A stretch of DNA of 64,000 bases. Origin: Taeniopygia guttata (Eukaryota). A program made the translations under genes and the position numbers. Where the stretch lies: positions 4,599,324-4,663,323 of the forward strand of contig NC_133041.1 of the NCBI RefSeq assembly GCF_048771995.1, read 5' to 3'. Shown piece after piece: positions 9,690-61,929 of the stretch. How positions within the stretch are numbered: the stretch's first letter is position 1; each line of letters begins with the position of its first letter. The notes under the pieces were generated by a model. It was not told where the DNA came from. It searched no databases and was given only the letters and a program-made list of their open reading frames with translations.

Positions 9690-12600
9690 TAGGGGGGGTT
9701 TAGAGCGATTTTAGGGGGATTTTGGGGCCATTTTAGAGGCAAAGTTGAGGATTTTTTGAAGGTTTAGGGTGGATTTTGGGAAATTTAGGATGGATTTTGG
9801 GTGATTTAGGGTGGATTTTGGGGGATTTTGGGTGGATTTAGGGGGGATTTAGGATGGATTTTGGGGGATTTTGGCAGGTTTAGGATGGATTTAGGAAGGA
9901 TTTTGGGGGATTTAGGATGGATTTAGGATGGATTTTGGGGGATTTTGGATGGATTTTGGGCCATTTCAGACAGATTTTGGGAGATTTAGGATGGATTTGG
10001 GATGGATTTTAGGGGATTTAGGATGGATTTAGGACAGTTTAGGATGGATTTTGGGGGATTTTGGGTGGATTTTGGGTGGATTTAGGATGGATTTTGGATG
10101 GATTCTGGGGGATTTAGGATGGATTTAGGAAGGTTTAGGATGGATTTTGGGTGGATTTGGGAAGGTTTAGGATGGATTTGGGAAGGTTTAGGATGGATTT
10201 TGGGAGATTTCGGAAGGATTTCAGAAGGTTTAGATTGGATTTAGGATGGATTTCGGAAGGTTTGTGATGGATTTTGGAAGATTTAGGATGGATTTTGGGA
10301 GATTTCGGATGGATTTAGGATGGATTTCGGACGGATTTTGGGCCATTTCAGGTGGATTTTTGGCCATTTCAGGTGGATTTTGGGCCATTTCAGACAGATT
10401 TTGGCCCGTTTCGGGTGGATTTTAGGCCATTTTGGGTGGATTTTGGGCGGTTTCGGGTGGCGCCGGGACCCTCCCGCTGCGGAGCGGCCCCCTGCCCCGC
10501 CGCCAGCCCACCCCGGAGCCCCCCAGCGACCCCGAGGACGGGGGGGACCCCGCCCAGAGCCCCCCCCAGCGGCCCCCCGAGATCAAGTACACTTTGGGGG
10601 GAAAAATGGGGGTTTTGGGCAAAAAAACCGGGCGTTTTTAGGGGGTTTGGGGGCCATTTTAGGGGGATTTTGGGGCCATTTCAGAGGGAAAGTTGAGGGT
10701 TTTGGAAGGTTTAGGATGGATTTTGGGGCATTTAGGATGGATTTTGGGGGATTTAGGATGGATTTTGGGTGGATTTAGGGTGGATTTCCGATGGACTTTG
10801 GGGGATTTAGGATGGATTTTGGAACATTTAGGATGGAATTAGGCAGGTTTAGGATGGATTTTGGGGCATTTCGGATGGATTTAGGAAGGTTTAGGATGGA
10901 TTTTGGGTGGATTTTGGGGAATTTAGGATGGATTTAGGATGGATTTAAGCAGGTTTTGGATGGATTTTGGGGCATTTTGGATGGATTTAGGAAGGTTTAG
11001 GATGGATTTTGGGTGGATTTAGGAAGATTTAGGATGGCTTTGGGAAGGTTTAGGATGGATTTTGGGGCATTTCGGGTGAATTTTAGAAGGTTTAGGATGG
11101 ATTTAGGAAGATTTAGGATGGATTTAGGATGGATTTAGGAAGATTTAGGATGGATTTTGGGAGATTTAGAATGGATTTAGTGTGGATTTAGGATGGATTT
11201 TGGGCCATTTCGGGCAGATTTTGGGCCGTTTCGGGCGGCGCCGGGACCCTCCCGCTGCGCAGCGGCCCCCTGCCCCGCCGCCAGCCCACCCCGGAGCCCC
11301 CCAGCGACCCCGAGGACGGGGGGGACCCCGCCCAGAGCCCCCCGCAGCGGCCCCCCGAGATCAAGTACACTTTGGGGGGAAAAACGGGCGTTTTGGGCAA
11401 AAAAACCCGGCATTTCTACGTGGTTTGGGGGCCATTTTAGGGGGATTTTTGTGCCATTTCAAAGGGAAAGTTGAGGATTTTGGAAGGTTTAGGATGGATT
11501 TAGGATGGATTTAGGATGGATTTTGGGCCATTTCGGGTGAATTTTAGAAGGTTTAGGATGGATTTAGGAAGATTTAGGATGGATTTTGGGAGATTTAGGG
11601 TGGATTTAGGATGGATTTAGGATGGATTTTGGGCCATTTCGGGCGTATTTTGGCCCATTTCGGGCGGCGCCGGGACCCTCCCGCTGCGCAGCGGCCCCCT
11701 GCCCCGCCGCCAGCCCACCCCGGAGCCCCCCAGCGACCCCGAGGACGGGGGGGACCCCGCCCAGAGCCCCCCCCAGCGGCCCCCCGAGATCAAGTACACT
11801 TTGGGGCGAAAAACGGGCGTTTTGGGCAAAAAAACCGGGGATTTCTACGTGGTTTGGGGGCCATTTTAGGGGCATTTTGGGGGGATTTTGCGGCCATTTC
11901 AGAGGGAAAGTTGAGGGTTTTTGGAAGGTTTAGGATGGATTTTGGGGCATTTAGGATGGATTTAGGATGGATTTTGGGGGATTTAGACAGGTTTAGGATG
12001 GATTTTGGGAGATTTCAGGTGGATTTAGGATGGATTTTGGGAGATTTAGGGTGGATTTAGGATGGATTTAGGATGGATTTTGGGGTATTTAGGATGAATT
12101 TTGGAACATTTAGGATGGATTTTGGGGAATTTAGGAAGGATTTAGGCAGCTTTAGGATGGATTTTGGGGGATTTAGGATGGATTTAGTATGGATTTTTGG
12201 GGATTTTGGATGGATTTCGGAAGGTTTAGATTGGATTTAGGATGGATTTAGGAAGGTTTGGGATGGATTTAGGAAGATTTAGGATGGATTTTGGGGCATC
12301 TAGGATGAATGTGGGATGGATTTTGGGGGATTTAGGGTGGATTTGGGATGGATTTTGGGGGATTTAGGATGGATTAAGGATGGATTTGGAGCATTTAGGA
12401 AGGTTTCGGATGGATTTTGGGGCATTTAGGGTGGATTTAGGATGGATTTTTGGGGCATTTAGGATGGATTTGGGATGGATTTTGGGGGCTTTAGGATGGA
12501 TTTTGGGGGATTTAGGGTGGATTTAGGATGGATTTTGGGGCATTTAGGAAGGTTTCGGATGGATTTTGGGGGATTTAGGATGGATTTACAAAGTTTTAGG

Positions 12601-13080
12601 ATGGATTTCGGATGGATTTTTGGGCATTTCGGATGGATTTAGGAACATTTAGGATTGATTTTGGGGGATTTAAGAAGGATTTTGGGGGATTTAGGATGAA
12701 TTTGGGAAAATTCAGAACAGATTTTTGGGGTTTGGACGAATTTTGGGATGAAATTTAAGCGATTTCGGGGCCATTTCCCAGTGAAAATTGAGGATTTTGG
12801 GAAGCTTCGGGTCAGATTTTGGATGAATTTTTGGGATTTCCAAAGAATTTGGGAGAAATTTTGGGGGAATTTTTCAGCATTTTGGCACAATCGAGGAAAA
12901 TTTCGGTTTTCATTCTAAATTTGAGTTTAATTCCTGCAAATCCAGGAAAAATCTCAGAATTTTCCAGCCAAAATCCCCCAAAATTTAACCCAAAATTCCC
13001 AAATTTTTGCTTTTTGGATCCCAAAATTTCCCCCAAAATCCCCCAAAGGAATTTTTTCCCAATTTTGTGGGATTTGACCC
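9690..13080. repeat. ~22-bp satellite ggatggatttaggatggattttgggg (PAGR1 intron 1) with embedded exon-1-tail copies
   Basis: The periodicity is visible directly. Confidence 0.9.
10459..11900 (+). other. Three partial copies of the PAGR1 exon 1 3' end plus donor plus ~90 bp of intron, inside the intron-1 satellite
   Basis: Copies of gcgccgggaccctcccgctgcg..cccccgagatcaa|gtacactttgggg..gggcgttttgggcaaaaaaacc lie at about 10459-10690, 11228-11470 and 11658-11900, and each keeps the GT donor. Confidence 0.8.
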
Positions 13081-14181: not shown

Positions 14182-14336
14182 GCCCGCCCAGCCGGGGGCA
14201 GAAGCGCGAGGCGCGGCTGGACAAGGTCCTGTCGGACATGAAGCGCCACAAGCGGCTGGAGGAGCAGATCCTGCGCACCGGCCGGGACCTGTTCCCGCCC
14301 CAGGGCCAGCGCCCCTTCCCCCGCCACAAAAACTGA
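14182..14336 (+). CDS. PAGR1: PAGR1 terminal coding exon (stop TGA at 14334-14336)
   Basis: The acceptor is ccccatttcag|. It encodes (G)[50 protein letters not shown], a near-identical match to human PAGR1 [37 protein letters not shown]. Confidence 0.85.
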
Positions 14337-14439: not shown

Positions 14440-17400
14440 CATTTCCGGCCAGGACCTGTTCCCGCCCCAGGGCCAGCGCCCCTTCCCCAGGCACAAAAAC
14501 TGACGGAAAATGGGAAAAAATGCAAAAAAAATAATGGTTTGGGCACTCCGTGCTGTTTTGGGACGATTTGGAGCTGTTTTAGGGAGTTATACATTGATTT
14601 TTGGGTGATTTTTGGGGCATTTCCGGCCGGGACCTGTTCCCGCCCCAGGGCCAGCGCCCCTTCCCCAGGCAGAAAAACTGAGGGAAAAAGGGAAAAAATT
14701 GAAAAAAATTAACATTTCAGGCACTCGGCCTCGTTTTGGGTGAATTTCGGTGGTTTTTGGGTGATTTTTGGGCAATTTTTGGGTGATTTTTGGGGCATTT
14801 CCGGCCGGGACCTGTTCCCGCCCCAGGGCCAGCGCCCCTTCCCCCGCCACAAAAACTAAGGGAAAAAGGGAAAAAATCCAAAAAAAATAACATTTACGGC
14901 ACCCCACGGTGTTTTGGGACGATTTGGAGCTGTTTTAGGGAGTTATACATTGATTTTTGGGTGATTTTTGGGTGATTTTTGGGGCATTTCCGGCCGGGAC
15001 CTGTTCCCGCCCCAGGGCCAGCGCCCCTTCCCCCGCCACAAAAACTGAGGGAAAAGGGAAAAAATTGAAAAAAAATAATAGTTTGGGCACCCCACGTTGT
15101 TTTGGGGCGTTTTAGGGAGTTGTACATTGATTTTTCGGTGATTTTTCGGTGATTTTTGGGAGTTGTACATTGATTTTTGGGTGATTTTTGGGGTATTTTT
15201 GGCCAGGACCTGTTCCCGCCCCAGGGCCAGCGCCCCTTCCCCCGCCACAAAAACTGAGGGAAAAGGGAAAAATGCAAAAAAAATAACGTTTCGGGCACCC
15301 TGTGGTGTTTTTGGGTGAATTTTGGTGGTTTTTGGGTGATTTTTGGGCGATTTTATGGAGTTATACGTTGATTTTTCTGTGATTTTTGGGAGTTGTACAT
15401 TGATTTTTGGGTCATTTTAGGGAGTTTTATGTGGATTTTTGGGTGATTTTTGGGACTTTTACATTGAATTTTGGGACTTGTACATTGATTTTTGGGTGAT
15501 TTTTGGGAGTTATACATTGATTTTTGGGTGATTTTTAAGAGTTGCACATTGATTTTTCGTGATTTTTTTGGGAGTTATACATTGATTTTTTGGGTGATTT
15601 TTGGGAGTTGTACGTTGATTTTTCAGTGATTTTTGGGAGTTGTACATTTATTTTTGGTGATTTTTGGGGTGATTTTTGGGGTGATTTGGGGCATTTCCGG
15701 CCGGGACCTGTTCCCGCCCCAGGGCCAGCGCCCCTTCCCCCGCCACAAAAACTGACGGAAAATGGGAAAAATGCAAAAAAAATAACGTTTCGGGCACCCT
15801 GTGGTGTTTTTGGGTGAATTTTGGTGGTTTTTGGGTGATTTTTGGGCGATTTTATGGAGTTATACGTTGATTTTTCTGTGATTTTTGGGAGTTGTACATT
15901 GATTTTTGGGTCATTTTAGGGAGTTTTATGTGGATTTTTGGGTGATTTTTGGGACTTTTACATTGAATTTTGGGACTTGTACATTGATTTTTGGGTGATT
16001 TTTGGGAGTTATACATTGATTTTTGGGTGATTTTTAAGAGTTGCACATTGATTTTTCGTGATTTTTTTGGGAGTTATACATTGATTTTTTGGGTGATTTT
16101 TGGGAGTTGTACGTTGATTTTTCAGTGATTTTTGGGAGTTGTACATTTATTTTTGGTGATTTTTGGGGTGATTTTTGGGGTGATTTGGGGCATTTCCGGC
16201 CGGGACCTGTTCCCGCCCCAGGGCCAGCGCCCCTTCCCCAGGCACAAAAACTGAGGGAAAATGGGAAAAAATCCAAAAAAAAAAACATTTCAGGCACCTC
16301 ACGGTGTTTTGGGTCATTTTACGGAGTTGTACATTGATTTTTGGGTGATTTTTGGGGCATGTTTTACCAGGACCTGTTCCCGCCCCAGGGGCAGCGCCCC
16401 TTCCCCCGCCACAAAAACTGAGGGAAATGGGAAAAATGCAAAAAAAAATAACGTTTTGGGCATCTGGCGTTGTTTTGGGCGAATTTGGTGGTTTTTGGGT
16501 GATTTTTGGGCGATTTTATGGAGTTATACGTTGATTTTTGGGTGATTTTTGGGAGTTGTACATTGATTTTTCAGTGATTTTTGGAACTTGTACATTGATT
16601 TTTGGTGATTTTTGGGTTACTTTTGGGAGTTGTACATTGATTTTTGGGTGATTTTTGGGACTTGTACATTGATTTTTGGGAGTTGTACGTTGGTTTTTGG
16701 GTGATTTTTGGGTGATTTTTGGGGCATTTCCGGCCGGGACCTGTTCCCGCCCCAGGGCCAGCGCCCCTTCCCCAGGCACAAAAACTGAGGGAAAAAGGGA
16801 AAAAATGCAAAAAAAATAACGTTTCGGGCACTCGGCCTCGTTTTGGGTGAATTTCGGTGGTTTTTGGGTGATTTTATGGAGTTATACATTGATTTTTCGG
16901 TGATTTTTGGGAGTTATACATTGATTTTTCAGTGATTTTTGGGAGTTGTACATTGATTTTTCAGTGATTTTTGGAACTTGTACATTGATTTTTGGTGATT
17001 TTTGGGTTACTTTTGGGAGTTGTACATTGATTTTTGGGTGATTTTTGGGACTTGTACGTTGATTTTTGGGTGATTTTTCAGTGATTTTTGGGAGTCGTAC
17101 GTTGATTTTTGGGTGATTTTCGGCTGGGACCTGTTCCCGCCCCAGGGCCAGCGCTCCTTCCCACGGCACAAAAACTGACGGAAAAGGGGAAAAATGCAAA
17201 AAAAAATAACATTTACGGCACCCCACGGTGTTTTTGGGTCGTTTTAGGGAGTTGTACATTGATTTTTGGGTGATTTTTGGGAGTTGTACATTGATTTTTG
17301 GGTGATTTTTGGGGCATTTCCGGCCGGGACCTGTTCCCGCCCCAGGGCCAGCGCCCCTTCCCCAGGCACAAAAACTGAGGGAAAATGGCAAAAAATGCAA

Positions 17401-17740
17401 AAAAATAACATTTCAGGCACCCTGCCTCGTTTTGGGTGAATTTCGGAGGTTTTTGGGTGATTTTTGGGAGTTAAACACTGATTTTTCAGTGATTTTTCAG
17501 AGTTGTACATTGATTTTTCAGGGAATTTTGGGAGTTGTACATTGATTTTTGGGTGATTTTTGGGTGATTTTTAGGAGTTTTATGTTGATTTTTGGGAGTT
17601 GTACGTTGATTTTCAGGTGATTTTAGGGACTTCTACGTTGATTTTTGGGTGATTTTTGGGGCATTTCCGGCCGGGACCTGTTCCCGCCCCAGGGCCAGCG
17701 CCCCTTCCCCCGCCACAAAAACTGAGGGAAAAGGGAAAAA
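14440..17740 (+). other. About 12 partial copies of the PAGR1 last-exon 3' end (last ~17 codons plus stop plus the start of the 3' UTR), embedded in a ~35-bp satellite
   Basis: The unit gggacctgttcccgccccagggccagcgccccttcccc[ca]g[gc]cacaaaaactga[cg]ggaaaa.gggaaaaaatgcaaaaaaaataac recurs at about 14449, 14628, 14808, 14990, 15203, 15696, 16197, 16360, 16731, 17128, 17323 and 17664. Confidence 0.8.
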
Positions 17741-18436
17741 ATTCTCAAAAAAATAACGTTTCAGGCACCCCGTGGTGTTTTGGGTCGTTTTTTGGGTGAA
17801 TTTATGGAGTTATACATTGATTTTGGCTGATTTTTGGGTGATTTTTGGGAATTGTACATTGATTTTTCGGTGATTTTTGGCAGTTGTACATTGATTTTTT
17901 GGTAATTTTTGGGACTTCTACGTTGATTTTTGGGTGATTTTACGGAGTTTTATGTTGATTTTAGGGAGTTGTACATTGATTTTTGGATGATTTTTGGGAC
18001 TTTTACATTAAATTTTGGGTGATTTTGGGAGTTGTACATTGATTTTTTGGTAATTTTTTTAGGAGTTGTACGTTGATTTTTTGGCGATTTTTGGGGATTT
18101 TATGTTGATTTTTGGATGATTTCTGGGAGTTATACATTGATTTTTAGCGATTTTTGGGAGTCGTACATTGATTTTTGGGTGATTTTTGGGATTTTTACAT
18201 TGAATTTTGGGACTTGTACATTGATTTTTGGGTGATTTTTGGGTGATTTTTTGGGTGATTTTGGGCTGATTTTTTGGGTAATTTTGTGCATTTCCACGGC
18301 GATTTTCTCATTTCCACGACGATTTTTTTAACAGTTTTTTCCCATTTTTATGCTGAATTTCAATTCCCCCCCGAGTCCCAAAAAAACCCCAAAAGTCCAA
18401 GAATTCCCCCCAAAAAACCCCAAATTTGGGGTTTCT

Positions 18437-18549
18437 TCATTCGCTGTCGGAGTCGACGACGCCGCGGAGCCGCGACCAGTCCGGGGGGGGGAGGGGCGAC
18501 CTCGGCGGCGATTTTGGGGCCGTTTCGGCGTTTCTGCGGCGGGATCGCG
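18437..18549 (-). CDS. HIRIP3: HIRA-interacting protein 3, terminal coding exon (stop at 18437-18439)
   Basis: The minus-strand translation is (A)RSRRRNAETAPKSPPRSPLPPPDWSRLRGVVDSDSE*, matching the human HIRIP3 C-terminus ..RPRRRTAWNPLGEAAPPGELYRRTLDSDEERPRPAPPDWSHMRGIISSDGESN*. The acceptor is ttttttcccccag| (phase 1), which is compatible with the upstream exon. Confidence 0.65.
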
Positions 18550-18559
18550 CTGGGGGAAA

Positions 18560-19350
18560 AAAGAAATTAATTTGGGGAAATTTGGGAAAAATTTGGGAAA
18601 ATTTGGGGTTTTTACAGCGATTTTTTGGTGGTTTTATGGCGATTTTTCGTGTTTTTACGGTGATTTTTTGGTGTTTTTTGGGGATTTTTACGTTGATTTT
18701 TTGGCGAATTTTTGGGTCATTTTTTGGGGATTTTTTAGGTCGTTTTTGGGTGATTTTGTGGTGAATTTGGGGGTTTTACAGCGATTTTTGGGTGTTTTAT
18801 CGGTGATTTTGGGAGTTTTTATGGTGTTTTTTGGGTAATTTTGTGGCAATTTTATGGTGATTTTTTTGGGTCATTTTTAGGTGAATTTGGGATTTTTGTA
18901 GCGATTTTTGGGTGTTTTTTCGGTAATTTTGGGGGATTTTTATGTTCATTTTTAGGCAATTTTTGGATAATTCTTTGGCAATTTTAAGGTGATTTTTTTG
19001 GGTCATTTTTGGGTGATTTTGGGAATTTTCACAGCGATTTTGGGGCAGTTTTGGGATTTCTGCGGCGGGATCGGGATAAAAAAAGAAATTCAAGGGGAAA
19101 ATTTGGGGAAATTTGGGGAAAATTTGGGGTTTTTACAGCGATTTTTGGGTGATTTTTTCTGATCTTTTTTTTTGGGTGATTTTGGGGTGATTTGAGCATT
19201 TTCCCAACGATCTTCGGGGCAATTTTTTGGGTGATTTTGGAGATTTTTTTGATGATTTTAAAGGAATTTTGGCCATTTTCTCAACGATCTTTGGGGCGAT
19301 TTTGGTTCTTTTTTTTTTAAATAAAATGTTGGCGATTTTCACAGAAAATT
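18560..19350. repeat. G/T-rich satellite (ggtgattttgtggtgaatttgggggttttacagcgatttttgggtgtttt)
   Basis: It contains a second partial copy of the HIRIP3 last-exon flank (tttctgcggcgggatcggg at ~19060). Confidence 0.8.
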
Positions 19351-19396
19351 GAAGTTTTTAAGGGCAGAATTTTGGGGTTTTTTTGGGTTTTTTTAC

Positions 19397-19489
19397 CGGG
19401 TAAAATGTTGGAGGCGTCGAGGGCGGCGAGTTCGGCTCTTTCCTCGCGGCGGCGGCCGAGGCGGCGGCACCGGGCCAGGGACGGGGTGC
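19397..19489 (-). CDS. HIRIP3: HIRIP3 penultimate exon (3' end may extend: an alternative in-frame stop lies at 19317)
   Basis: The minus-strand translation is (G)TPSLARCRRLGRRREERAELAALDASNILP(G), matching human GTPSLGKCRALKEQREEAAEVASLDVANIISG. The acceptor is ctttttcag| and the donor G|GTAAAAAAA. Confidence 0.7.
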
Positions 19490-19499
19490 CTGAAAAAGC

Positions 19500-21200
19500 C
19501 AAAAAACGACCCAAAATTCACCCCAAAATCCACTGAAAACTCCACCCAAATCTGCAAAATTCCGCCAAAATTCCCCCAAATCCCAAAATTTCAGCCAGAA
19601 TCCCCCAATTCCCACCAAATCCCCCAAAATAACCGAATTTTACCCAAAATTACAGCAAAATTCCGCCCAAAATCCCGAAATTCTGCCCAAAATTCTGTGA
19701 AAATCCCAAAATTCCCCCAAATTCCTGTGAAAATCCCAAAATTCCCCCAAAATCCTTCAATTCTCCCAAAAATTCACCCGAAATTACAGAATTCCAGCAA
19801 AATCCATAAATTCCCAAAAAATTCTCTGGAAAATCCAAAAATGTCACCAAAAGTCCCAAAGTTCCACCCAAAATTCCTTGAAAATTCCAGGATTTCACTC
19901 AAAGTTATCCCCAAAATTTAATTTCACCCATAATTCCGTGAAAATCTCAAAATCCCACCCAAATTCCCAAAATTTCACCCAAAATCCTCCTGAAAGTCCC
20001 CAAAAAATCCGCAAAAACCCCAAAATCCCAGGAATTAATCCCAAAATCCCAAAATCCTGGGAATGAACCCCAAAAACCCTAAAATCACGGGAATTATCCC
20101 CAAAATCCCATGAATGAATCCCAAAATCCTGGGAATTAACCCCCAAAATCCCGGGAATTAACACAAAAAACCAAAATCCCGGGAATTAACTCCCAAAATC
20201 CCAGAAATTCATCCCAAAAAACCCCAAAATCCTGGGAATTAACCCCCAAAATCTCGGGAATTCACCCCAAAACCCCCAAAATCCTGGGAATTTTCCCCGA
20301 AAGCCCCAAAAATCCCGGGAATTATCCTCAAAATTCTGGGAATTCACCCCAAAATCCTGGGAATTAACCCCCAAAAAAACACCCAAAATCCCAGGAATTA
20401 AACCCAAAATCCCAAAATCCCGTGAATTCACCCCAAAATCCCGGGAATTGGCCCCAAAATCCGAAAACGCCGGGAATTCCCCCCGAAACCCCCCAAAATC
20501 CCGTGAATTCACCCCAAAACCCCCAAAATCCCGTGAATTCCCCCCAAAACCCCCAAAATCCCGTGAATTCCCCCCAAAACCCCCAAAATCCCGTGAATTC
20601 CCCCCGAAAACCCCAAAATCCCGTGAATTCCCCCCAAAACCCCCAAAACCTCGTGAATTCCCCCCAAAATCCCGTGAATTCCCCCGAAAATCCCCTGAAC
20701 TCCCCCCAAATCCCCAAAATCCCGGGAATTCCCCCCGAAATCCCCAAAATCCCGGGAATGAACCCCAAAATCCCGGGAATTCACCCCTAAAAAACCCAAA
20801 ATCCCGGGAATTCACCTCAAAACGCCGGGAATTCACCCCAAAAGCCCCGAAATCCCGGGAATCGATCCCCAAATCCCGGGAATTCACCCCAAAAGCCCCA
20901 AAATTCCAAGAATTCCCCCCAAAACCCCCAAAATCCCGGGAATGAACCCCAAAATCCCAGGAATTCACCCCAAAATCTCAGGAATTAACCCCAAAATCTC
21001 AGGAATTCACCCCAAAATCCTGGGCATTAACTCCTAAAATCTGAGGAATTCCCCCCAAAAAACCCGAAAATCCCGTGAATTCCCCCCAAAATCCCGAGAA
21101 TTCCCCCCAAAGCCCCAAAATCCCGGGAATTACCACAAAAAGACCCAAAATCCCGAGAATTCCCCCCAAAATCCCGGGAATTCCCCCAAACCCCACATCC
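19500..21200. repeat. ~22-bp satellite cccaaaatcccgggaattcacc in the HIRIP3 intron
   Basis: The periodicity is visible directly. Confidence 0.9.
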
Positions 21201-21206
21201 GGGCAC

Positions 21207-21351
21207 CTCTGAGGCCGAGCTCGCGCAGGGCGCCCCTCAGCGCCTCCAGCGCCTCGCGGCGGCTGCGGCACTTCCGGAACAGCCGCTTGTAGTTAGGGCG
21301 CCACCCAGCGGCGCGGAGGTATCGCTTCAGCCGCGCCACTTCCGGCGGGTC
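21207..21351 (-). CDS. HIRIP3: HIRIP3 exon encoding the conserved CHZ-adjacent region
   Basis: The minus-strand translation is DPPEVARLKRYLRAAGWRPNYKRLFRKCRSRREALEALRGALRELGLR(G), matching human MRLKRYIRACGAHRNYKKLLGSCCSHKERLSILRAELEALGMKG. The acceptor is ccccag| and the donor AGAG|GTGCCC. Confidence 0.75.
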
Positions 21352-21539
21352 CTGGGGGCGGGGCTCAGTCAGGGGCGGGGCTTGCGCAAACCACGCCCCC
21401 TCTGGGGATTTGGCGGGAAATTGGGGGTTTTGGCGGGAATGGGAAATTAAGGGGATTTTGGGGGATTTTGGCATAAATTTGTTCAAGTTTTGGGGTTTTG
21501 GGGTTTTGGAAAATGTGGGGAAGGTTTTGTGGGGAAAGT

Positions 21540-22300
21540 TGGTGAGGTGGTGATAAAGGAATGTGAATAAGGTAATTAAATAGAGAATAAAAATAAATAA
21601 ATAAAAATAAAAATAAATATAAATATAAAAAGAAATATAAATATATGTAAATATAAAAATCAATATAAATATAAAAATAAAAATAAAAATAAAAATCAAT
21701 ATAAATATAACCATAACTATAACTATAGCTATAACTAAAATATAAATATAAATATAAATATAAATATAAATATAAATGTAAATGTAAATGTAAATATATG
21801 TAAATATAAAAATCAACATAAATATAAAAATCAAAATAAATATAAAAATCAATATAAGTATAACCGTAACTATAACTATAACTATAACTAAACTAAAATA
21901 TAAATATAAATATAAATATAAATATAAATATAAATATAAATATAAATATAAATATAAACAGAGTATAAATATAAATATAAATATAAATATAATAGTTATA
22001 AAATTAACCATTAAATAATATAAGTATAAATAGTGCATAAATATAAGTATAAATATGAATAAAATAATTATAAAATTAACAATAAAATAAGATACATATA
22101 AGTACAAATAAAAGAAAATAATAAAATTAAAAATAAAATAATAAAAATAAAAATAAGAAATAAAATATAATATAATAAAATATAAAATTTAAAAACTAAA
22201 TAAAGTAAGTATAAATAAAAGAAATAAAATAATATAAATTAAACATATAAATAAAATAATATAAATAAAATAATAAAAGTTTTGTGGAAATTTAACAAAA
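21540..22300. repeat. AT-rich microsatellite, (ATAAAT/ATATAA)n
   Basis: The block is ~90% A+T inside an otherwise GC-rich region. Confidence 0.9.
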
Positions 22301-22379
22301 ACGGCAAATCGCAAACAAAATCTCGCCAAAAATCGAGAAAAACGGCACAGAAATAACCAATTGTTACCTTCATAATATT

Positions 22380-23860
22380 CCGATATTCTGCCCCAAAATT
22401 CCCCCCAATATTACCCCCAAAATCCCAAAAATCCCCCCCAAAAATTATCCCCAAAGTCCTTCAAAATCTCCCCAAAATTTCCCCAAAATCCCAAAAATCT
22501 CCCCCAGATTCTCCCCCAAATTCCCTCCAAAATCCCCCCAAAATCACCCCAAAATCCCCCCAAATTCCCTCCAAATTCCTCCCAAAATTCCCCCCAAAAT
22601 TCTCCCCAAATCTCCCAAAACCCCCCAAATTTCCACAAAAAGCCCCTAATATTTTTCCCTGAAAATCCCACATTTCCCCCCTAAAAATCCCAAAATTCCC
22701 CACAAATCCCCAAAAATCCCAAATTTTACCCCAAAATCCCAATTTCCCCAATTTTTTTTCCAGAAAACCCAAATTTTACCTAAAAATCCAAAATTTCCCC
22801 CAAAAATTTCCCAAAATTCATAAATTTTCTTAAAACTCCCCTCAAAAATCCCAAATTTCCCCAAAATTCCCCCCAAAATCCAAATTTTCCCAATCTTTAC
22901 ACAAAAACACCCAAAAATTCCAATTCTCTTATTTTTTTCCCCAAAAATCCCAAATTTCCACCTAAAACCCCCAAAATTCCCCCAAAATTTTCCCAAAAAA
23001 ACCATTTTTTCCCCCAAATTTTCCCACAAAACCCCACATTTTCCCCATAAATAACCGATTTTTCCCCAAAAATCCCAAATTTCCCCCCAAAATCCCCATT
23101 TTCCCCAAAATTTTCCCAAAATTCCTCCCAAAAATCCCAATTTTTTCCCAAAACCCCCAAATTTCCCCAAAATTCCCCTCAAACACCCCAAATTTCCCCA
23201 AATATCCCCCCAAAAATCAAAATTTTCTGCAAAATTCCCTCCAAAATCCCAATTTTTTTACCAAAACGCCCAAATTTCCTCAAAATTCCCCTCAAAAACC
23301 AAAATTTTCCCAAAATTCCTCCCAAAAATCCCAATTTTTTCCCCAAAACCCCCAAAATTCCCCAAAAATCCCCTCAAAAATCAAAATTCCCCAAAATTCC
23401 CCTCAAAATTCCCAAATTTCCCCAAAATTCCCCCCAAAATCCCATATTTTTTCCCAGGACCCCCAAATTTCCCCAAAATTCCCCTAAAAAACCCCAAATT
23501 TCCCCAAAATTCCCCAAAACCTTCAAATTTCCCCAAATATCCCCCGAAAAATCAAAATTTCTCCAAAATTCCCCCCAAAAATCCCAAATTTCCTCAAAAT
23601 TACCTCAAAAAAAATCCCAATTTTCTCCAAATTCCTTCCAAAAATACCAATTTTTTTACCAAAAAAACCAAATTATCCCCAAAATTCCCCCCCCAAAATA
23701 ATAATTTTTGTCCTGAAAAAAACAATTTTTCCCCAAAATTTCCCCCAAAATCCCAATTTTTTTACCAAAATCCCCAATTTTTCCCTAAAATTTTCCCAAA
23801 ACCCCCCAAAATTTTCCCAAAAACCCCCAAATTTTCCCAAAAAAACCCCAAATTCCCCCA
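22380..23860. repeat. C/A-rich satellite (ccccaaaattcccc..aaatcccaaattt, ~40-bp)
   Basis: The periodicity is visible directly. Confidence 0.85.
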
Positions 23861-23870
23861 AAATTTTCAC

Positions 23871-49514: not shown

Positions 49515-49639
49515 GAGTCGGAGTCGGAGCCGGAGTCGGAGTCGGACGAGGATTGGGGCGATTCCGCCTCGGAGTCGGACTCGGAGTCGGATGAGGACGA
49601 CGGAAAATTCACCTCGTTGGCCTCCAAATTCCTCAAAAA
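49515..49639 (+). CDS. EIF3C: EIF3C exon 9
   Basis: It encodes ESESEPESESDEDWGDSASESDSESDEDDGKFTSLASKFLK(K), matching human ..[39 protein letters not shown]. The donor is AA|GTCAGG. Confidence 0.85.
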
Positions 49640-51340
49640 GTCAGGAAATCGGGAAAATTGGGAATTTCGGGAAAATTTGGGTGAAAAAACGGGAAAAATC
49701 GGGTGAAAAATGGGAAAAATCCGGGGAAAATTGGGTGGAAAATTGGGAAATTGGGGGAAAGTTGGGTGGAAAACACGGAAAAATCCTGGGAAAATTTTGG
49801 GGCAAATTCACCTCTCTGGGCTCCAAATTCCTCAAAAAGTCAGGAATTCGGGAAAATTGGGGATTTTGGGAGAATTTGGGGGAAAAAACGGGAAAAATCG
49901 GGTTAAAATTGGGGGGAAAATGGGGAAATTGGGGGAAAGTTGGGGGGAAAATACGGAAAAATCCCGGGGAAAATTCACCTCATTGGCCTCCAAATTCCTC
50001 AAAAAGTCAGGAATTCGGGAAAATCGGGGATTTCCGGAAAATTTGGGGGAAAAAACGGGAAAAATCGGGTGAAAAATGGGAAAAATCCGGGGGAAATTGG
50101 GGGAAAGTTGGCTGGAAAATATGGAAAAATCCCGGGGAAAATTTGGGGGAAATTGGGAAAAATCGGGTGAAAATTTGGGAAATTTTGGAGAAAAATTGGG
50201 TGGAAAATTGGGAATTTTGGGAAAAATTTGGGAAATTTTGCGGGAAAATTGGGGGAAATCGGGTGAAAATTGGGGAAATTTTGTGTGAAAGTTGGGTGGA
50301 AAATAGGGAAAAATCCGGGAGAAAATTCACCTCATTGGCCTCCAAATTCCTCAAAAAGTCAGGAAATTGGGAAAATTGGGAATTTTGGGAGAATTTGGGG
50401 GGAAAAATGGGAAAAATCGGGTGAAAAATGGGAAAAATCCGGGGGAAAATTGGGTGGAAAATTGGGAAATTGGGGGAAAGTTGGGTGGAAAATACGGAAA
50501 AATCCCAGGGAGAATTGGGGAAAATTCACCTCGCTGACTCCAAATTCCGCAAAAAGTCAGGAAATCGGGAAAATCGGGAATTTCCGGAGAATTTGGGGGA
50601 AAAAATGGGAAAAATCGGGTTAAAATTGAGTGAAAAATGGGGAAAATTGGGTGAAAGTTGGGTGGAAAATACGGAAAAATCCTGGGGAAATTTGGGAAAA
50701 TTAGTGGGAAAATTTGGGTGAAAATTGGGGAATAATTGGAAAATTTTGAGGAAAAATTGGGTGAAAATTGAGGAAAATTGGGTGGAAAATTTGCACGAAA
50801 ATTGGGGGTAAATTGGGAAATTTTAGGGGAAAATTGAGGAAAATTGGGAACAATTCGAGAGAAAATTGGGGAAATTTGGGAAATTTTGTGTAAAGGTTGG
50901 GTGAAAAATTGGGGCAAATTCACCTCTCTGGCCTCCAAATTCCTCACAAAGTCAGGAAATCGGGAAAATTGGGGATTTTGGGAGAATTTGGGGGAAAAAA
51001 CAGGAAAAATCGGGTGAAAAATGGGAAAAATCCGGGGGAAATTGGGTGGAAAATGGGGGAAATTGGGGAAATTGGGTGGAAAACTGGGTAATTTTGGAGG
51101 AAAATTGGGGGGAAATTGGGAAAAATCGGGTGAAAATTTGGGAAATTTTGGAGAAAAATTGGGTGAAAAATTGGGAAAATTGGGGAAAATTTGGGAAGAA
51201 ATTGGGGAAAATCGGGTGAAAATTGGGGAAATTTTGTGTGAAAGTTGGGTGGAAAATTGGGAAAAATCCGGGGAAAATTTGCCTCGCTGGGCTCCAAATT
51301 CCTCAAAAAGTCAGGAAATCGGGAAAATTGGAAAATTCGG
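49640..51340 (+). other. Six partial copies of the EIF3C exon 9 3' end plus donor, embedded in the downstream satellite
   Basis: The unit [ag]aaattcacctc[gtac]..ggc[ct]ccaaattcctcaaaaa|gtcaggaa[at]tcgggaaaattgg occurs at about 49795, 49972, 50316, 50518, 50910 and 51276. Confidence 0.8.
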
Positions 51341-54862: not shown

Positions 54863-55004
54863 GGCGGCGCAGATCGAGCTGCTGCAGCACCTGGTGGCCG
54901 TGGCCCACGAGCACCAGCTGGGGGTGCCCCTGGAGCTGAAAATCAAATTCAACATCGTGGCCTCGCTCTACGACTACAACCCCAACCTGGCCGCCTACAT
55001 GAAG
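54863..55004 (+). CDS. EIF3C: EIF3C exon 12
   Basis: It encodes (R)[47 protein letters not shown], matching human [47 protein letters not shown]. Confidence 0.9.
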
Positions 55005-55009
55005 GTGAA

Positions 55010-56150
55010 ATCGGGGCAAAAAACGGGGAAATCGGGCAAAAAACACAGAAAAAAAAAAGGGGAAATCGGGCAAAAAATAGAGAAAAAAAATGGGGAAAAT
55101 TGGGGCAAAAATGGGGTTAAAAATGTGATTTATTTGGATTTTTTTTTGATTTTTTGAAGGTAAAAGAAGGGTTAAAAATGAAATTTAAAAGGGAAAAAAA
55201 TTGGGGAAAATTGAGATAAAATAAGCAAAAAATTGGGGAAAATTTAATTAAAATTTGGTGAAAAAAGGGTTAAAAATGGGATTTATTTGGATTTTTGGGG
55301 AATTTTTTAAGGGAAAATAAGGGTTAAAAATGAAATTATAAAAGGGAAAACTGGGGGGAAATTAAGATAAAATGGGGAGAAAATTGGGGAAAATTTGGTG
55401 AAAATTGGGTGAAAAAAGGAATAAAAATGACGATAATAATGGGATTTATTTGGGTTTTTGGGACTACAACCCCAACCTGGCCGCCTACATGAAGGTGAAA
55501 ACGGGGCAAAAAACAGCGAAATTGGGCAAAAAATAGAGAAAAAAACCCGGGGGAAATTGGGGCAAAAATGGAGAAAATATGGAGAAAATATGGGGAAAAA
55601 AAGGTGGAAAATTGGGGTTAAAAATGTGATTTATTTGGATTTTTTTGCGATTTTTTTAAGGGAAAATAAGGGTTAAAAATGAAATTAAAAAGGGAAAAAA
55701 TTGGGGAAAATTAAAAGAAAATGAGGAAAAAATTGGGGGAAATTTGGTGAAAATTGGGTGAAAAAAGGAATAAAAATGGGGATAAAAATGGGATTTATTT
55801 GGATTTTGGGGATTTTTTAAAGGTAAAACAAGGGTTAAAAATGGAGGAAGAATGGGGAAAATTGAGATAAAATTAGGAAAAAATTGGGGAAAATTTGGTG
55901 AAAATTGGGTGAAAAAAGGGTGAAAAATGGGGATAAAATGGGATTTATTTGGATTTTTTTAAAGGTAAAACAAGGGTTAAAAATGAAATTAAAAAGGGAA
56001 AAAATGGGGGAAAATTGAGATAAAATGAGGGAAAAATTTGGTGAAATTTGGTGAGAAAAGGAATAAAAATGGGGTTAAAAATGGGATTTATTTGGGTTTT
56101 TGGGACTACAACCCCAACCTGGCCGCCTACATGAAGGTGAAAACGGGGCA
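55010..56150 (+). other. Two partial copies of the EIF3C exon 12 3' end plus donor in a ~640-bp higher-order repeat
   Basis: The unit gactacaaccccaacctggccgcctacatgaag|gtgaaaacggggcaaaaaac occurs at about 55463 and 56103. In the copies the breakpoint lies inside the exon, before GACTAC. Confidence 0.8.
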
Positions 56151-56639
56151 AAAAACGGCAAAATCGGGCAAAAAATAGAGAAAAAAACCCGGGGGAAATT
56201 GGGGCCAAAATGGGGAAAATATGGGGGAAAAACGGTGGAAAATCGGGGTAAAAATGGGATTTATTTGGAATTTTTTTGGGATTTTTTGAAGGTAAAAGAA
56301 GGGTTAAAAGTGAAATTTAAAAGGGAAAAAAAATTGGGGAAAATTGAAATAAAATAAGCAAAAAATTGGGGAAAATTTAATTAAAATTTGGTGAAAAAAG
56401 GGTTAAAAATGGGATTTATTTGGATTTTTTAGGAATTTTTGGAGGTAAAACAAGGGTTAAAAATGAAATTAAAAAGGGAAAAAATGGGGGAAATTAAAAT
56501 TAAATGAGGAAAAAATTGGGGGAAATTTGGTGAAAATTGGGTGAAAAAAGGAATAAAAATGGGGGGAAAAATGGGATTTTTTTGGATTTTTTTTGGGATT
56601 TTGTGAAGGGCGGATCTGTGGGTCAGACAGGATCTATGG

Positions 56640-57514
56640 GGCGGATCTATAGGGTGAGTTTCTATAGGCGGAGCTGTGGCAGCGCTGCCTGGGATGTATA
56701 GAGGAGCTCCTGGAGCTGCTATGGGGCAGATCTATAGGCTCGGGGCGGATCTATGGGCTCGGGGCGGATCTATGGGGCAGATCTATGGGTCAGACAGGAT
56801 CTATGGGGCGGATCTATAGGGTGATATTCTATAGGCGGAGCTGTGGCAGCGCTGCCTGGGATGTATAGAGGAGCTCCTGGAGCTGCTATGGGGCAGATCT
56901 ATAGGCTCGGGGCGGATCTATAGGGCAGATCTATGGGTCAGACAGGATCTATGGGTCAGACAGGATCTATGGGTCAGGGCGGATGTGTGGGTCAGGATCT
57001 ATAGGGTGATATTCCATAGGCGGAGCTGTGGCAGCGCTGCCTGGGATGTATAGAGGAGCTCCTGGAGCTGCTATGGGGCAGATCTATGGGCTCGGGGCGG
57101 ATCTATGGGGCAGGATGGATCTATAGGGCAGGATCTGTGGGTCAGGATCTATGGGGCAGATCTATAGGGTGAGTTTCTATAGGCGGAGCTGTGGCAGCGC
57201 TGCCTGGGATGTATAGAGGAGCTCCTGGAGCTGCTATGGGGCAGATCTATAGGCTCGGGGCGGATCTATGGGGCAGGGTGGATCTATAGGGCAGATCTAT
57301 GGGTCAGACAGGATCTATGGGGCGGATCTATAGGGTGATATTCTATAGGCAGAGCTGTGGCAGCGCTGCCTGGGATGTATAGAGGAGCTCCTGGAGCTGC
57401 TATGGGGCAGATCTATGGGCTCGGGGCGGATCTATGGGGCAGGATGGATCTATAGGGCGGATCTGTGGGTCAGACAGGATCTATGGGGCGGATCTATAGG
57501 GTGATATTCTATAG
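56640..57514 (+). other. Five upstream partial copies of the EIF3C exon 13 acceptor plus its first ~53 nt in a ~170-bp tandem array
   Basis: The unit ttctatag|gc[ga]gagctgtggcagcgctgcctgggatgtatagaggagctcctggagctgct occurs at about 56669, 56836, 57021, 57181 and 57351. The copies diverge after GCTGCT into atggggcagatctat.., and only the final copy continues into the real exon. Confidence 0.85.
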
Positions 57515-57640
57515 GCAGAGCTGTGGCAGCGCTGCCTGGGATGTATAGAGGAGCTCCTGGAGCTGCTCTTTGCCCACCCCGAGATCTTCGTGGGCGAAAA
57601 CGTCCTCGAGGAGTCCGAGAACCTCAGCAACCCCGAGCAG
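57515..57640 (+). CDS. EIF3C: EIF3C exon 13
   Basis: It encodes [42 protein letters not shown], matching human [42 protein letters not shown]. The acceptor is ttctatag| and the donor CAG|GTATGG. Confidence 0.85.
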
Positions 57641-58460
57641 GTATGGGGCAATCTATGGGGCACCTATGGGGCACTTGTGGGGTACTTGTGGGGCACTTAT
57701 GGGGCATTTATGGGGTGTGGGGGCACCTATGGGGTCATTTTTGGGGTCACTTATGGGGTAATCTATGGGGTCATTTATGGGGCTCCTATGGGGTCATTTA
57801 TGGGGTGTGGGGGCACTTATGGGGTTATTTATGGGGCACTTATGGGGTAATCTATGGGGCACTTATGGGGCACCTGTGGGGTCACTTATGGGGCACCTGT
57901 GGGGTCACTTATGGGGAACTTATGGGGCACTTTGGGGCACTTATGGGGCACTTATTGGGTTATCTATGGGGTCACTTATGGGGCACCTATGGGGCACTTA
58001 TGGGGCACCTATGGGGCACTTATGGGGCACCTATGGGGTCATTTATGAGGCACTTACGGGGCACTTATGGGGCACTTATGGGGTACCTATGGGGCATTTA
58101 TGGGGCACTTGTGGGGTCATTTATAGGGTCACTTTTGGGGTCACTTATGGGACACTTATGGGGATTTTGGGGTCACTTTTGGGATTTTGGGGTCATTTTG
58201 GGGTCAGTTTTGGGGTAATTTTGGGTTTATTTATGGGATTTTATGGTCGGTTTTGGTTTTTGGGGTAAATTTTGGGGATTTTGGGTCCGTTTCAGCCGTT
58301 CCGGGTGCGCGGCTGCGTCCTGACCCTGGTGGAGCTGAGGGGTCATTTTGGGGTCATTTATGGGTTTTGGGGTCACTTTTGGGGTTTTTTGGGTGGGTTT
58401 TGGGTTTTTGAGGACAGTCACGGATTTTTGGGGTAAATTTTGGGGATTTTGGGTCCGTTT
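57641..58460. repeat. ~22-bp satellite (cacttatggggcacctatgggg)
   Basis: ORFs 57523-58218 and others (MGHLWGTYG..) are artefacts. Confidence 0.9.
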
Positions 58461-58463
58461 CAG

Positions 58464-58557
58464 CCGTTCCGGGTGCGCGGCTGCGTCCTGACCCTGGTGG
58501 AGCGGATGGACGAGGAGTTCACCAAGATCATGCAGAACACCGACCCCCACTCCCAGG
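58464..58557 (+). CDS. EIF3C: EIF3C exon 14
   Basis: It encodes [31 protein letters not shown](E), matching human [32 protein letters not shown]. One partial upstream copy of the acceptor plus first ~45 nt lies at about 58284-58330. Confidence 0.9.
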
Positions 58558-59589: not shown

Positions 59590-61929
59590 GGTGTGCCCAG
59601 GTGTGTCCAGGTGTGACCTCAGTGTACCTGGAGCACCTGAAGGATCCAAACCCTGAACGGGGGCTCACCTGGAGCTCACCTGGCTGTGATTTCGATGGGA
59701 TTTTTGGGGTTTTTTTGGACTTTTTTGGGTTTTTTGGGGTTTCTTGGGGTTTTTTTGGCATTTTAATCCCTCACCTGCCCACAAGGTGTGCCCAAGTGTG
59801 CCCAGGTGTGCCCAGGTGAATCCTCAGAACTCCTGGAGCACCTGAAGGATCCAAATCCTGAGCTGGAGCTCACCTGGCTGGGATTTTGATGTGGTTTTTT
59901 GGGGGTTTTTTGGGTTTTTTGGTGTTTTTTGGGTTTTTAAAGTCTCACCTGCCCACCAGGTGTGCCCAGGTGTGACCTCAGTGTACCTGGAGCACCTGAA
60001 GGATCCAAACCCTGAACTGAGACTCACCTGGAGCTCACCTGGGGCTCACCTGGATGGATTTTGGAGGATTTTTGGGGTATTTTTGGGCTTTTTTGACATT
60101 TTAATCCCTCACCTGCCCACAAGGTGTGCCCACAAGGTGTGCCCAGGTGTGCCCAGGTGAATCCTCAGAACTCCTGGAGCACCTGAAGGAGCTGGAGCCT
60201 CACCTGGGGCTCACCTGGAGCTCACCTGGCTGGGGATTTTGGGGATTTTTTGGAGTATTTTGTGGGTTTTTTGGGTTTTTAGGTCTCACCTGCCCAACAG
60301 GTGTGCTCAGGTGAGTCCTCAGAACACCTGGAGCCTCACCTGGGGCTCACCTGGCTGGGTTTTTTGGGGATTTTTTGGGCTTTTTTTGGTTTTTTTGGTG
60401 TTTTTTTGGCATTTTAATCCCTCACCTGCCCACCAGGTGTGCCCAGCTGTGCCCAGGTGAGTCCTCAGAACACCTGGAGCACCTGAAGGAGGTGGAGCCT
60501 CACCTGGAGCTCACCTGGCTGGGATTTCGATGTGGTTTTTGGCTTTTTTTTTGTCCTTTTTTTGGTTTTTTTTTTGGTTTTTTTTCTTTTTTCGCTATTT
60601 GCCCCCTCACCTGCCCGCCAGGTAACCCAGGTGTGTCCTTTCAGAGTACGTGGAGCACCTGAAGGATCCAAACCCTGAACTGGGGCTCACCTGGCTGGGA
60701 TTTCAATGGGATTTTTGGGGTTTTTTTGGGTTTTTTGGTATTTTCAGCCTCACCTGCCCGCCAGGTGACCCCGCCAGGTAACCCAGGTGTGTCTTTGCAG
60801 AGTACGTGGAGCACCTGAAGGAGCCGGAGCCTCACCTGGAGCTCACCTGGCTGTAATTTTGATGTGGTTTTTGGCGCTTTTTTGTCCTTTTTTTGGATTT
60901 TTTTTTTGCATTTTCCGCTATTTCCCCCTCACCTGCCCGCCAGGTAACCCAGGTGTGCCTTCACAGAGTACGTGGAGCACCTGAAGGAGCTGGAGCCTCA
61001 CCTGGGGCTCATCTGAGGCTCATCTGGAGCTCACCTGGCTGGGATTTCAATGTGATTTTTTGGGGTATTTTTGGGGATTTTTGGTGTTTTTTGGGTTTTG
61101 AAGGTCTCACCCCTCAGCCAGGTGTGTCCAGGTGAGTCCTCAGAACAATTGGAGAACCTGAAGGAGCCGGAGCCTCACCTGGCTGGGATTTTGGGGATTT
61201 CTTGGTGTATTTTTGGCCTTTTTTTGTCCTTTTTTTGGGTTTTTTTGGGGTTTTTTTTGCCACTTCCCCCCTCACCTGCCTGCCAGGTGTGCTCAGGTGT
61301 GCCCAGGTGTGACCAGGTGTGACTTCAGTGTACCTGGAGCACCTGAAGGATCCAAACCCTGAACTGAGACTCACCTGGAGCTCACCTGGAGCTCACCTGG
61401 AGCTCACCTGGGGCTCACCTGGGGCTCACCTGGCTACGATTTTGGGGTTTTTTGGGCTTTTTTAATCATTTTTTTGGATTTTTTTCCTTTTTTCACTACT
61501 TCCACCCTCACCTGCCCGCCAGGTAACCCACCAGGTAACCCAGGTGTGTCTTTCAGAGTACGTGGAGCACCTGAAGGATCCAAACCCTGAACTGGGGCTC
61601 ACCTGGAGCTCACCTGGCTGCGATTTTGGGGATTTCTTGGTGTATTTTTGGCTTTTTTTTGTCCTTTTTTTGGGTTTTTTTTCCTTTTTTCGCTATTTCC
61701 TCCCTCACCTGCCCGCCAGGTGAGCTCAGCTGTGCCCAGGTGTGTCCAGGTGAGTCCTGAGAACACCTGGAGCACCTGAAGGATCCAAACCCTGAACTGG
61801 AGCTCACCTCGCTATGATTTCTATGTGATTTTTCGGGGTTTTTTAGGTTTTTTGGGCGTTTTTTTGGCATTTTCACCTTTACCTGCCCGCCAGGTGACCC
61901 CGCCAGGTAACCCAGGTGTCTCTTCCCAG
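59590..61929 (+). other. About 12 upstream partial copies of the EIF3C exon 15 acceptor plus first ~22 nt, in a ~150-190-bp tandem array
   Basis: The motif (t)ttcag|agtacgtggagcacctgaag and the variants cag|aacacctggagcacctgaag and cag|tgtacctggagcacctgaag occur at about 59609, 59828, 59972, 60166, 60466, 60644, 60800, 60965, 61140, 61325, 61548 and 61757. Each is followed by gatccaaaccctgaactgg..ctcacctgg rather than the exon body. Confidence 0.85.

Follow-up and report, generated by a model that had tools for sequence, protein, structure and literature searches.

A stretch of 64,000 nucleotides of zebra finch DNA (Taeniopygia guttata, contig NC_133041.1, forward-strand positions 4,599,324 to 4,663,323; hereafter the window) was analyzed for copies of exon edges within its tandem repeats. 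The window carried five genes in the order VKORC1 (- strand), PAGR1 (+), a HIRIP3-like gene (-), INO80E (+), and EIF3C (+). Outside the exons it was almost wholly tandem repeat, with 739 rows in the Tandem Repeats Finder output. The array periods were mostly 10-42 nt, with larger higher-order periods in addition. We identified 54 exon-edge copies at 10 exon edges of VKORC1, PAGR1, INO80E, and EIF3C, and the exon part measured 22-127 nt. Judged from the sequence, these arrays are cases of exon stuttering, a kind of anatomy already published in 2025-2026.

Exon mapping was started with tblastn using human protein sequences, and the exon borders and splice sites were placed by hand. The gene identities were later confirmed independently. 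Pfam matches were obtained to PAXIP1_C for PAGR1, INO80E for INO80E, and VKOR for VKORC1. The three-exon VKORC1 protein matched that of Taeniopygia guttata with 100% identity along its entire length. In homologue searches, the spliced EIF3C fragment matched vertebrate EIF3C proteins, with passerines nearest, and the spliced PAGR1 fragment matched passerine PAGR1; a zebra finch EIF3C or PAGR1 protein was not among the matches listed. In the case of EIF3C, the first 13 mapped coding exons were covered. E5, E7, E10, E11, E12, and E13 as numbered here correspond to exons 6, 9, 12, 13, 14, and 15 of an earlier note on this DNA, called the original prediction below. All source exons had open reading frames and intact splice sites. 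G-quadruplex motifs were dense and lay mainly on the coding strand of each gene.

Exon-edge copies in four genes

Copies were detected by BLASTN of each exon against the window, followed by anchored read-outs of the junctions. On re-alignment the exon-derived bases were present, and all 54 copies stopped exactly at the exon border before running on into flanking sequence. As a control, 30 dinucleotide-preserving shuffles of each flanking region were used. The real matches scored 44-252 bits, whereas the best shuffled matches reached 18-32 bits across all families. The copies lay on the expected side of the exon in 10/10 families, and there were no wrong-side copies. When the exons were compared by BLASTN with the rest of the window, including non-adjacent introns, no significant match was found except GAG-type low-complexity sequence. 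Each family had 1-12 copies, spanned 168-3389 nt, and showed a copy spacing of 127-959 nt. Each copy held a single edge, which amounted to 22-127 nt of exons measuring 94-346 nt or longer. The decoy copies differed from one another by substitutions, and their spacing varied. Within a family the junction was single, except in EIF3C E5, where one of three copies had 59 nt and the junction otherwise gave 45 nt.

In the case of VKORC1, the source was the 5' edge of exon 3 (78 nt, 2525-2602, -; acceptor ...ctgtggcag/, the slash marking the exon border here and below). Its one decoy copy (2934-3011, -) lay 409 nt upstream in intron 2. It was 100% identical over the 78 nt with the AG kept, and ~95 nt of upstream intron had been co-copied. 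The 3' edge of PAGR1 exon 1 (127 nt, 9501-9627, +; donor CAA/gtacac) was followed downstream by three decoy copies in the region 10460-11793 (10460-10586, 11238-11364, and 11667-11793, +). Identity to the source was 98-100%, and the donor nine-mers agreed with it in full.

Two families belonged to terminal coding exons. The source in PAGR1 was the final 59 nt of the last coding exon (exon 3) with the stop TGA (14278-14336, +). Twelve copies of this coding-sequence end, its stop, and the downstream flank were found at 14445-17725 (+), with no splice donor. They ended at 14503, 14681, 14859, 15048, 15257, 15755, 16254, 16421, 16788, 17178, 17378, and 17725. No AATAAA or ATTAAA was present in this array ahead of 18007. 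In INO80E, the source was the final 44 nt, with the stop TGA, of the last exon (33067-33110 of 32868-33110, +). Nine copies of the coding-sequence end with TGA lay at 33202-34464 (+) with a spacing of 127-244 nt, and ended at 33245, 33372, 33616, 33765, 33909, 34056, 34193, 34329, and 34464. The nine copies agreed with the original prediction, and the location of the exon and of its downstream array was corrected to these coordinates. Among the 21 terminal-exon copies, the stop codon was TGA in 20 and TAA in 1, followed by downstream sequence.

The remaining six families belonged to EIF3C (all +). The 3' edge of E5 (44781-44906; source 44848-44906, donor CAG/gtcagc) was copied three times downstream with the donor (45-59 nt, 45351-46321; ends 45395, 46008, and 46321). 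The 3' edge of E7 (49515-49639; source 49603-49639, donor AAA/gtcagg) had six decoy copies of ~37 nt at 49802-51309, which ended at 49838, 50005, 50357, 50555, 50950, and 51309. In all six the donor nine-mer was identical to the authentic one. The E10-E11 intron (55005-57514) carried two arrays, with 3'-edge copies of E10 and their donor in the first half and 5'-edge copies of E11 and their acceptor in the second half. The E10 source (54972-55004 of 54863-55004, donor AAG/gtgaaa) had two decoy copies of 33 nt in the region 55462-56136 (55462-55494 and 56104-56136), and the exon part was 100% identical. The E11 source (57515-57567 of 57515-57640, acceptor ttctatag/) was preceded by five decoy copies of 53 nt each at 56668-57401, with the acceptor and a spacing of 163-185 nt (starts 56668, 56835, 57020, 57183, and 57349). 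For E12 (58464-58557; source 58464-58503), one decoy copy with the acceptor was found 168 nt upstream (58296-58335, 40 nt, 100% identical). Finally, the 5' edge of E13 (61930-62275; source 61930-61951) had 12 decoy copies of 22 nt with the acceptor at 59623-61783, each with 0-5 mismatches. They started at 59623, 59828, 59982, 60169, 60469, 60645, 60801, 60967, 61144, 61329, 61557, and 61762.

The splice sites of the copies were compared with the authentic sites. In the donor copies the GT was kept in 14/14; the nine-mer was the authentic one in 12/14, and position +6 differed in the other 2/14. The donor scoring matrix was approximate, and only the identity between decoy and authentic nine-mers was relied on. 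In the acceptor copies the AG was kept in 19/19, with a pyrimidine content similar to that of the authentic sites. By these nine-mer and GT/AG comparisons, the decoy splice sites were locally as good as the authentic ones.

The original prediction had described junction-spanning copies in at least nine arrays. Ten edges were found, and every family that it named was confirmed by BLASTN, anchored read-outs, and shuffles, with its per-family copy counts correct. It had also counted ~60 pseudo-exon fragments with splice sites. Only 33 of the 54 copies bore a splice site, because the 21 terminal-exon copies carried a stop and no donor. Accordingly, four of the six 3'-edge families expected to have a GT donor did so, and the last exons of PAGR1 and INO80E had a stop instead. 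The statement that every unit contains an exon edge held for the higher-order unit of 127-959 nt and not for the intervening minisatellite units of 10-42 nt, which had no exon sequence. The range 9690-61929 given for the phenomenon was too narrow, since the VKORC1 duplicate and the PAGR1 exon 1 source fell outside it.

A recurring distance was observed between successive copies. Nine of the 53 spacings were 166-168 nt and came from five unrelated unit families (PAGR1 last exon, EIF3C E7, E11, E12, and E13), and 34 of the 53 were within 125-215 nt. The ~167-nt spacing may be a preferred duplication length, which would be nucleosome-sized, Okazaki-fragment-sized, or 16 helical turns. If true, a preferred unit of ~167 nt would link array growth to nucleosome-sized or Okazaki-fragment-sized duplication. 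The preference for 166-168 nt was not seen in the orthologous arrays of the other species compared.

Divergence of the copies and their counterparts in other passerines

Divergence was measured in fixed windows, in which the exon part was compared with the adjacent 40 nt. Local alignment windows of 200 nt were dropped because source and copy windows physically overlapped. Compared with the source, 3.7% of positions differed in the exon-derived parts and 18% in the 40 nt next to them (p about 1e-60). Among nine families, six showed a significant contrast, and the stretches 10460-10626 and 33202-33285 are examples of the difference. When decoys were compared with decoys, the exon parts were 2-10 fold less diverged in all families but E7, in which the two were equal. 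The terminal-exon families gave 3.8% vs 15.7% for the PAGR1 last exon and 1.3% vs 23.7% for INO80E. A search with the 40-nt flank only found no units lacking the exon piece in seven families; the flanks of INO80E and E13 were too repetitive or diverged to judge. This meant that the contrast was no ascertainment effect in the seven families. In addition, it was not tied to splice function, because the stop-codon families, which have no splice site, showed an equal or stronger contrast. The result is most simply explained by a higher mutation rate of the flanks, which are G/A-rich and of low complexity, possibly together with conversion from the constrained exon. The exon part was thus the less diverged one in the comparison that the original prediction had proposed, and selection on the decoys is not favored as the cause.

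Orthologous loci were compared in the passerine assembly GCA_041296385.2 (L001, EIF3C), Vidua chalybeata (L002), Manacus candei (L003 and L004), and Motacilla alba (L005). The original prediction had suggested such a comparison, and the same kind of copies was found in these independent assemblies of four other passerines. L001 had seven upstream copies of the EIF3C E13 edge, and the breakpoint (...CTGAAGGA/YCCAAAYCCTGA, the slash marking the breakpoint) was as in the zebra finch. The post-breakpoint sequence of the E13 fragment, YCCAAAYCCTGAAC...GGGCTCACCTGGAGCTC, was also common to both. Of the remaining EIF3C copies of the zebra finch, L001 had none. In the case of PAGR1 exon 1, Vidua chalybeata had five downstream copies of the edge, with a junction (GCGCCGGG...) equal to that of the zebra finch. 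Motacilla alba had three copies, with the junction within ~10 nt and a similar pre-junction sequence. The pre-junction sequence ...GG(C)CGGTTTGGGGC ahead of the exon 1 fragment was shared between species. The end of the PAGR1 coding sequence, with its stop, was also present as one copy in Motacilla alba, but its extent differed from that of the zebra finch copies.

In Manacus candei, contigs L003 and L004 carried copies at the 5' edges of EIF3C E3, E8, and E11 and at the 3' edges of E4 and E5. Between the two contigs the copy number was unequal at four of these five stuttered edges. The E5 and E11 edges were stuttered in both the zebra finch and Manacus with different breakpoints (45-59 vs 25 nt and 53 vs 75 nt, respectively). 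Most edges were lineage-specific, which indicated that the turnover of stuttered edges was fast.

The copies resembled their own species. PAGR1 exon 1 was ~81% identical between the zebra finch and Vidua, whereas the zebra finch copies were 98-100% identical to their own exon. In the read-outs, the exon 1 copies of Vidua and Motacilla were likewise near-identical to the exon of their own species. For EIF3C E13, the similarity of the decoy flanks to their own acceptor flank was 0.91 in L001 and 0.66 in the zebra finch, compared to 0.55-0.59 for the acceptor flank of the other species. The shared junctions together with this species-specific homogenization point to old arrays of EIF3C E13 and PAGR1 exon 1, which would have been homogenized by concerted evolution.

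Two further observations were made at these loci. In Manacus candei, the sequences matching zebra finch EIF3C E3 and E4 were contiguous with no intron between them (L003 5978-6167 and L004 14520-14709). The E3-E4 intron of the zebra finch measures ~2 kb. Intron loss is possible, as is an assembly or annotation quirk. In Vidua chalybeata, VKORC1 exons 1 and 2 were present twice, 3.2 kb apart (L002 6804-8715 and 10001-11914), at a locus with a 500-N gap. This is either a true tandem duplication or an assembly problem.

Origin of the arrays and alternative explanations

The best explanation of these results is exon stuttering in minisatellite-filled euchromatin of a zebra finch microchromosome, by border-spanning duplication and amplification. 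We assign it a probability of roughly 0.87. The observations that carry it are the anatomy, its statistical support, the occurrence in other species, and the species-specific homogenization. The founding event would be a local tandem duplication with one breakpoint inside the exon and the other in the neighboring intron, or downstream of the gene in the case of the last exons. The resulting unit would combine flanking repeats with the exon edge and its splice site or stop. It would then be amplified and continually reshuffled within the array by slippage, unequal exchange, or gene conversion. The copy contiguous with the exon would stay complete, and every other copy would be truncated. One junction per family suggests a single founding event followed by amplification, with the exception of EIF3C E5 and its two junction variants. 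The molecular route may have been replicative, through slippage or template switching at non-B DNA, or meiotic, through unequal exchange and conversion. The dense G-quadruplex motifs on the coding strand are in line with published mechanism proposals.

The original prediction had proposed that the arrays grew from a border-spanning unit. Such growth by tandem duplication and amplification was supported by the shared junctions, the differences in copy number between species and between the two Manacus contigs, and the homogenization within species. Its claim that copy polarity matches the exon side was borne out in every family. However, this does not count as a separate finding. The strict polarity is geometric and needs no special selection, because the duplicated segment begins inside the exon. 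Purifying selection that keeps the terminal functional copy, which it had also proposed, is not required. The truncated copies could never function, because the other exon end is missing. Selection would act solely against events that break the complete exon, and for this reason the exons would bound the arrays.

The host chromosome is probably a dot chromosome. EIF3C lies on dot chromosome 38 in the chicken, and the repeat structure of the window is like that of zebra finch dot-chromosome euchromatin. In the zebra finch telomere-to-telomere (T2T) paper and its companion, this euchromatin was described as ~51% minisatellite. Dot-chromosome introns were reported to be >70% tandem repeat and enriched in G-quadruplex and other non-B motifs (10.1101/2025.10.17.683159). 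Three points weigh against the stuttering explanation or parts of it. The identity as a dot chromosome was deduced from gene content and repeat structure. The contrast between exon and flank is not predicted by purely neutral turnover of whole units, and it calls for either conversion from the constrained exon or flanks of low complexity that are hypermutable. Finally, a shared breakpoint could in principle mark a recurrent hotspot instead of shared ancestry.

This last point amounts to independent duplications at the same fragile exon positions in place of an ancestral array in concerted evolution. In the view of Hron et al., introns that are orthologous between related species expanded independently of each other (PMC12954441), and the unequal breakpoints of E5 and E11 in the zebra finch and Manacus and the differing extent of the Motacilla PAGR1 last-exon copy would fit this. 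However, the non-exon side of the junction was also shared for EIF3C E13 and PAGR1 exon 1. This disfavors independent events, from which a match on both sides of a junction would not be expected. We consider recurrence rather unlikely for these two arrays, and the shared junctions qualify the inference of independent expansion per species.

A selected function was considered next to stuttering without function. The fragments would serve as splice-site decoys or as landing pads for U1/U2 that help to process, or that regulate, the minisatellite-filled introns. The routes could be suppression of premature polyadenylation, intron retention of the decoy-exon type, or regulation by nonsense-mediated decay. 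The lower divergence of the exon parts, which persisted among decoys alone, would be expected from this, as would the splice dinucleotides intact in 33/33 splice-site-bearing copies and the persistence of two arrays across species. However, the same or a stronger contrast was measured for the terminal-exon families, which have no splice site, and the flanks are low-complexity G/A runs that likely mutate faster. In addition, most stuttered edges differed among species. The NCBI gene models of Motacilla PAGR1 and of L001 EIF3C used the authentic sites and skipped the decoys, although this is weak evidence on decoy use. A selected function is therefore improbable.

A related proposal is that the fragments have been held near-identical to the exon for tens of millions of years, by directional gene conversion or selection, as arrays of decoys with splice sites of authentic strength. 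This is quite unlikely. If true, such arrays could recruit U1 or U2 in minisatellite introns, suppress premature polyadenylation, or tune output via nonsense-mediated decay. When reading in from a decoy acceptor, a stop codon was met within 17-54 codons in the EIF3C E11, E12, and E13 copies checked. Read-in transcripts would probably be degraded because of this early stop. From the sequence, we infer that splicing mostly passes over the decoy sites, or that transcripts made from them are lost to nonsense-mediated decay.

An assembly artefact would mean that the copies are false expansions or mis-joins in low-complexity sequence rich in non-B DNA. The region is extremely repetitive, and dropout of HiFi coverage in just such sequence was reported in the zebra finch T2T paper. 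The PAGR1 start codon, which was out of frame over poly-C runs, suggests some homopolymer errors. However, the copies differed by substitutions and were variably spaced. The same kind of copies was present in the independent assemblies of the four other passerines, and in two arrays the breakpoint was the same or within ~10 nt. For chicken PHF8, raw nanopore reads confirmed the repeat structure of the introns (Hron et al., PMC12954441). The independent assemblies and the nanopore validation in the chicken make an artefact very unlikely.

Retrocopies, processed pseudogene fragments, or exon pieces captured by transposable elements would account for exon-derived sequence outside exons and nothing further, and they were dismissed as next to impossible because every copy ran into unspliced flanking intron or downstream sequence and the copies were tandem, local, and in the same orientation, with no match in non-adjacent introns except GAG-type low-complexity sequence. 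Tandem duplicated, mutually exclusive exons were also rejected, as each copy had one edge and no second splice site.

Other features of the window and comparison with known systems

Several features lay outside the families described above. GC skew and G-quadruplex motifs tracked gene orientation, with a G-rich coding strand in VKORC1, the HIRIP3-like gene, INO80E, and most of EIF3C. Two exceptions had a C-rich coding strand, namely the EIF3C introns between 40 and 44 kb and the region of PAGR1, in which 5 motifs lay on the + strand and 12 on the - strand. The minus-strand gene at ~18430-27300 may be HIRIP3, as suggested only by C-terminal pieces at ~21130-21330 and ~18440-18520 that resemble the human protein. 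Inside it, a stop-free frame of 1154 codons was found at 23673-27137 (-). The frame was made up of a 135-nt acidic unit (45 aa; KFESEEEEDEDEEEE..PGGKNRKKTGKIEEKRQK) in ~11 copies, together with variants of 102 nt to 315 nt. The acidic minus-strand open reading frame had no Pfam or PDB matches. Stop codons are scarce on a purine-rich strand, and for this reason the length of the frame alone is weak evidence of coding. The frame may represent a coding minisatellite whose units stay in phase, or else the edge of an acidic exon that stuttered through an intron.

In the case of PAGR1, the only ATG upstream of the conserved coding sequence was at 9237 (+), and it was out of frame across long poly-C runs (9237-9310). 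Either a homopolymer length in the assembly is wrong or the start is located elsewhere. In the interior of EIF3C E13 (62096-62185, +), an 18-nt unit, CCCGCAG/GTGAGCCCCGG, which encodes PQVSPG, was present five times in frame. Each unit held a near-consensus donor motif, marked here by the slash, within the coding sequence. The PQVSPG repeat was missing from the L001 and Manacus EIF3C proteins.

The decoys probably cause annotation errors, of which the EIF3C models marked 'LOW QUALITY PROTEIN' are an example. They also provide a natural experiment on how the spliceosome discriminates between identical splice sites. The arrays were compared with four known systems. Ribosomal DNA and the higher-order repeats of alpha-satellite are tandem arrays that evolve by unequal exchange and gene conversion, that is, by concerted evolution. 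Like minisatellite and higher-order-repeat arrays, those described here were homogenized within species and diverged between species, and copy number varied by species and between haplotype-like contigs. What sets the zebra finch arrays apart is that part of a functional exon belongs to the unit, and that this exon both anchors and bounds the array.

Mammalian genes have decoy exons and splice sites that favor intron retention or nonsense-mediated decay. The intronic, authentic-looking splice sites of the zebra finch could likewise engage the spliceosome non-productively. In contrast, the zebra finch fragments have one splice site each and come from duplication of a neighboring edge. Arrays of tandem or mutually exclusive exons also show exon-derived sequence duplicated in tandem within a gene. 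However, the zebra finch copies are truncated, without the other end and second splice site, and cannot replace the exon.

The closest system is exon stuttering as described on chicken dot chromosomes (Hron et al., Genome Biol Evol 2026, PMC12954441). Chicken introns were filled with locally expanded imperfect tandem repeats, and >90% of the sources were within 1 base of the exon border (PMC12954441). The exon part measured 20-187 bp, the copy number was 1-44, the span was 112-23,555 bp, and the splice site was copied; such copies were said to 'create potential alternatively spliced transcripts' (PMC12954441). EIF3C (chr38) was in the supplementary gene list of that study (PMC12954441). The zebra finch arrays had the same kind of anatomy. 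They were partial lateral exon copies with the splice site, arranged in imperfect tandem through the adjacent repeat-filled intron, with the source at the border. Their 22-127 nt, 1-12 copies, and 168-3389 nt span were all inside the chicken ranges. The coding exons were intact, the host introns were covered by repeats, and the copies scored above the shuffled control. Extensive variation of intron length within a species is a further feature of exon stuttering, and the unequal copy numbers of the two Manacus candei contigs are an indirect hint of it.

No published description of exon stuttering in the zebra finch was found, and the present results show that a songbird has it too. The density was unusually high, with ten edges in four adjacent genes. 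By a rough estimate, ~7 of roughly 20-25 introns in the window were affected, compared to 3.4% of chicken dot-chromosome introns (PMC12954441). Four differences go beyond or against the published description. In the zebra finch, two terminal coding exons stuttered, which placed as many as 12 copies of the coding end with its stop codon downstream of the gene, whereas the chicken screen covered introns only. The chicken study reported that it had observed no repeat expansion inside exons, and zebra finch E13 has one. The exon-derived part of the decoys was far better conserved than the flanks. Finally, the chicken study inferred expansion per species, whereas two of the arrays here share a breakpoint across passerines and are homogenized per species, which suggests an old origin of some arrays that passerine families have in common.

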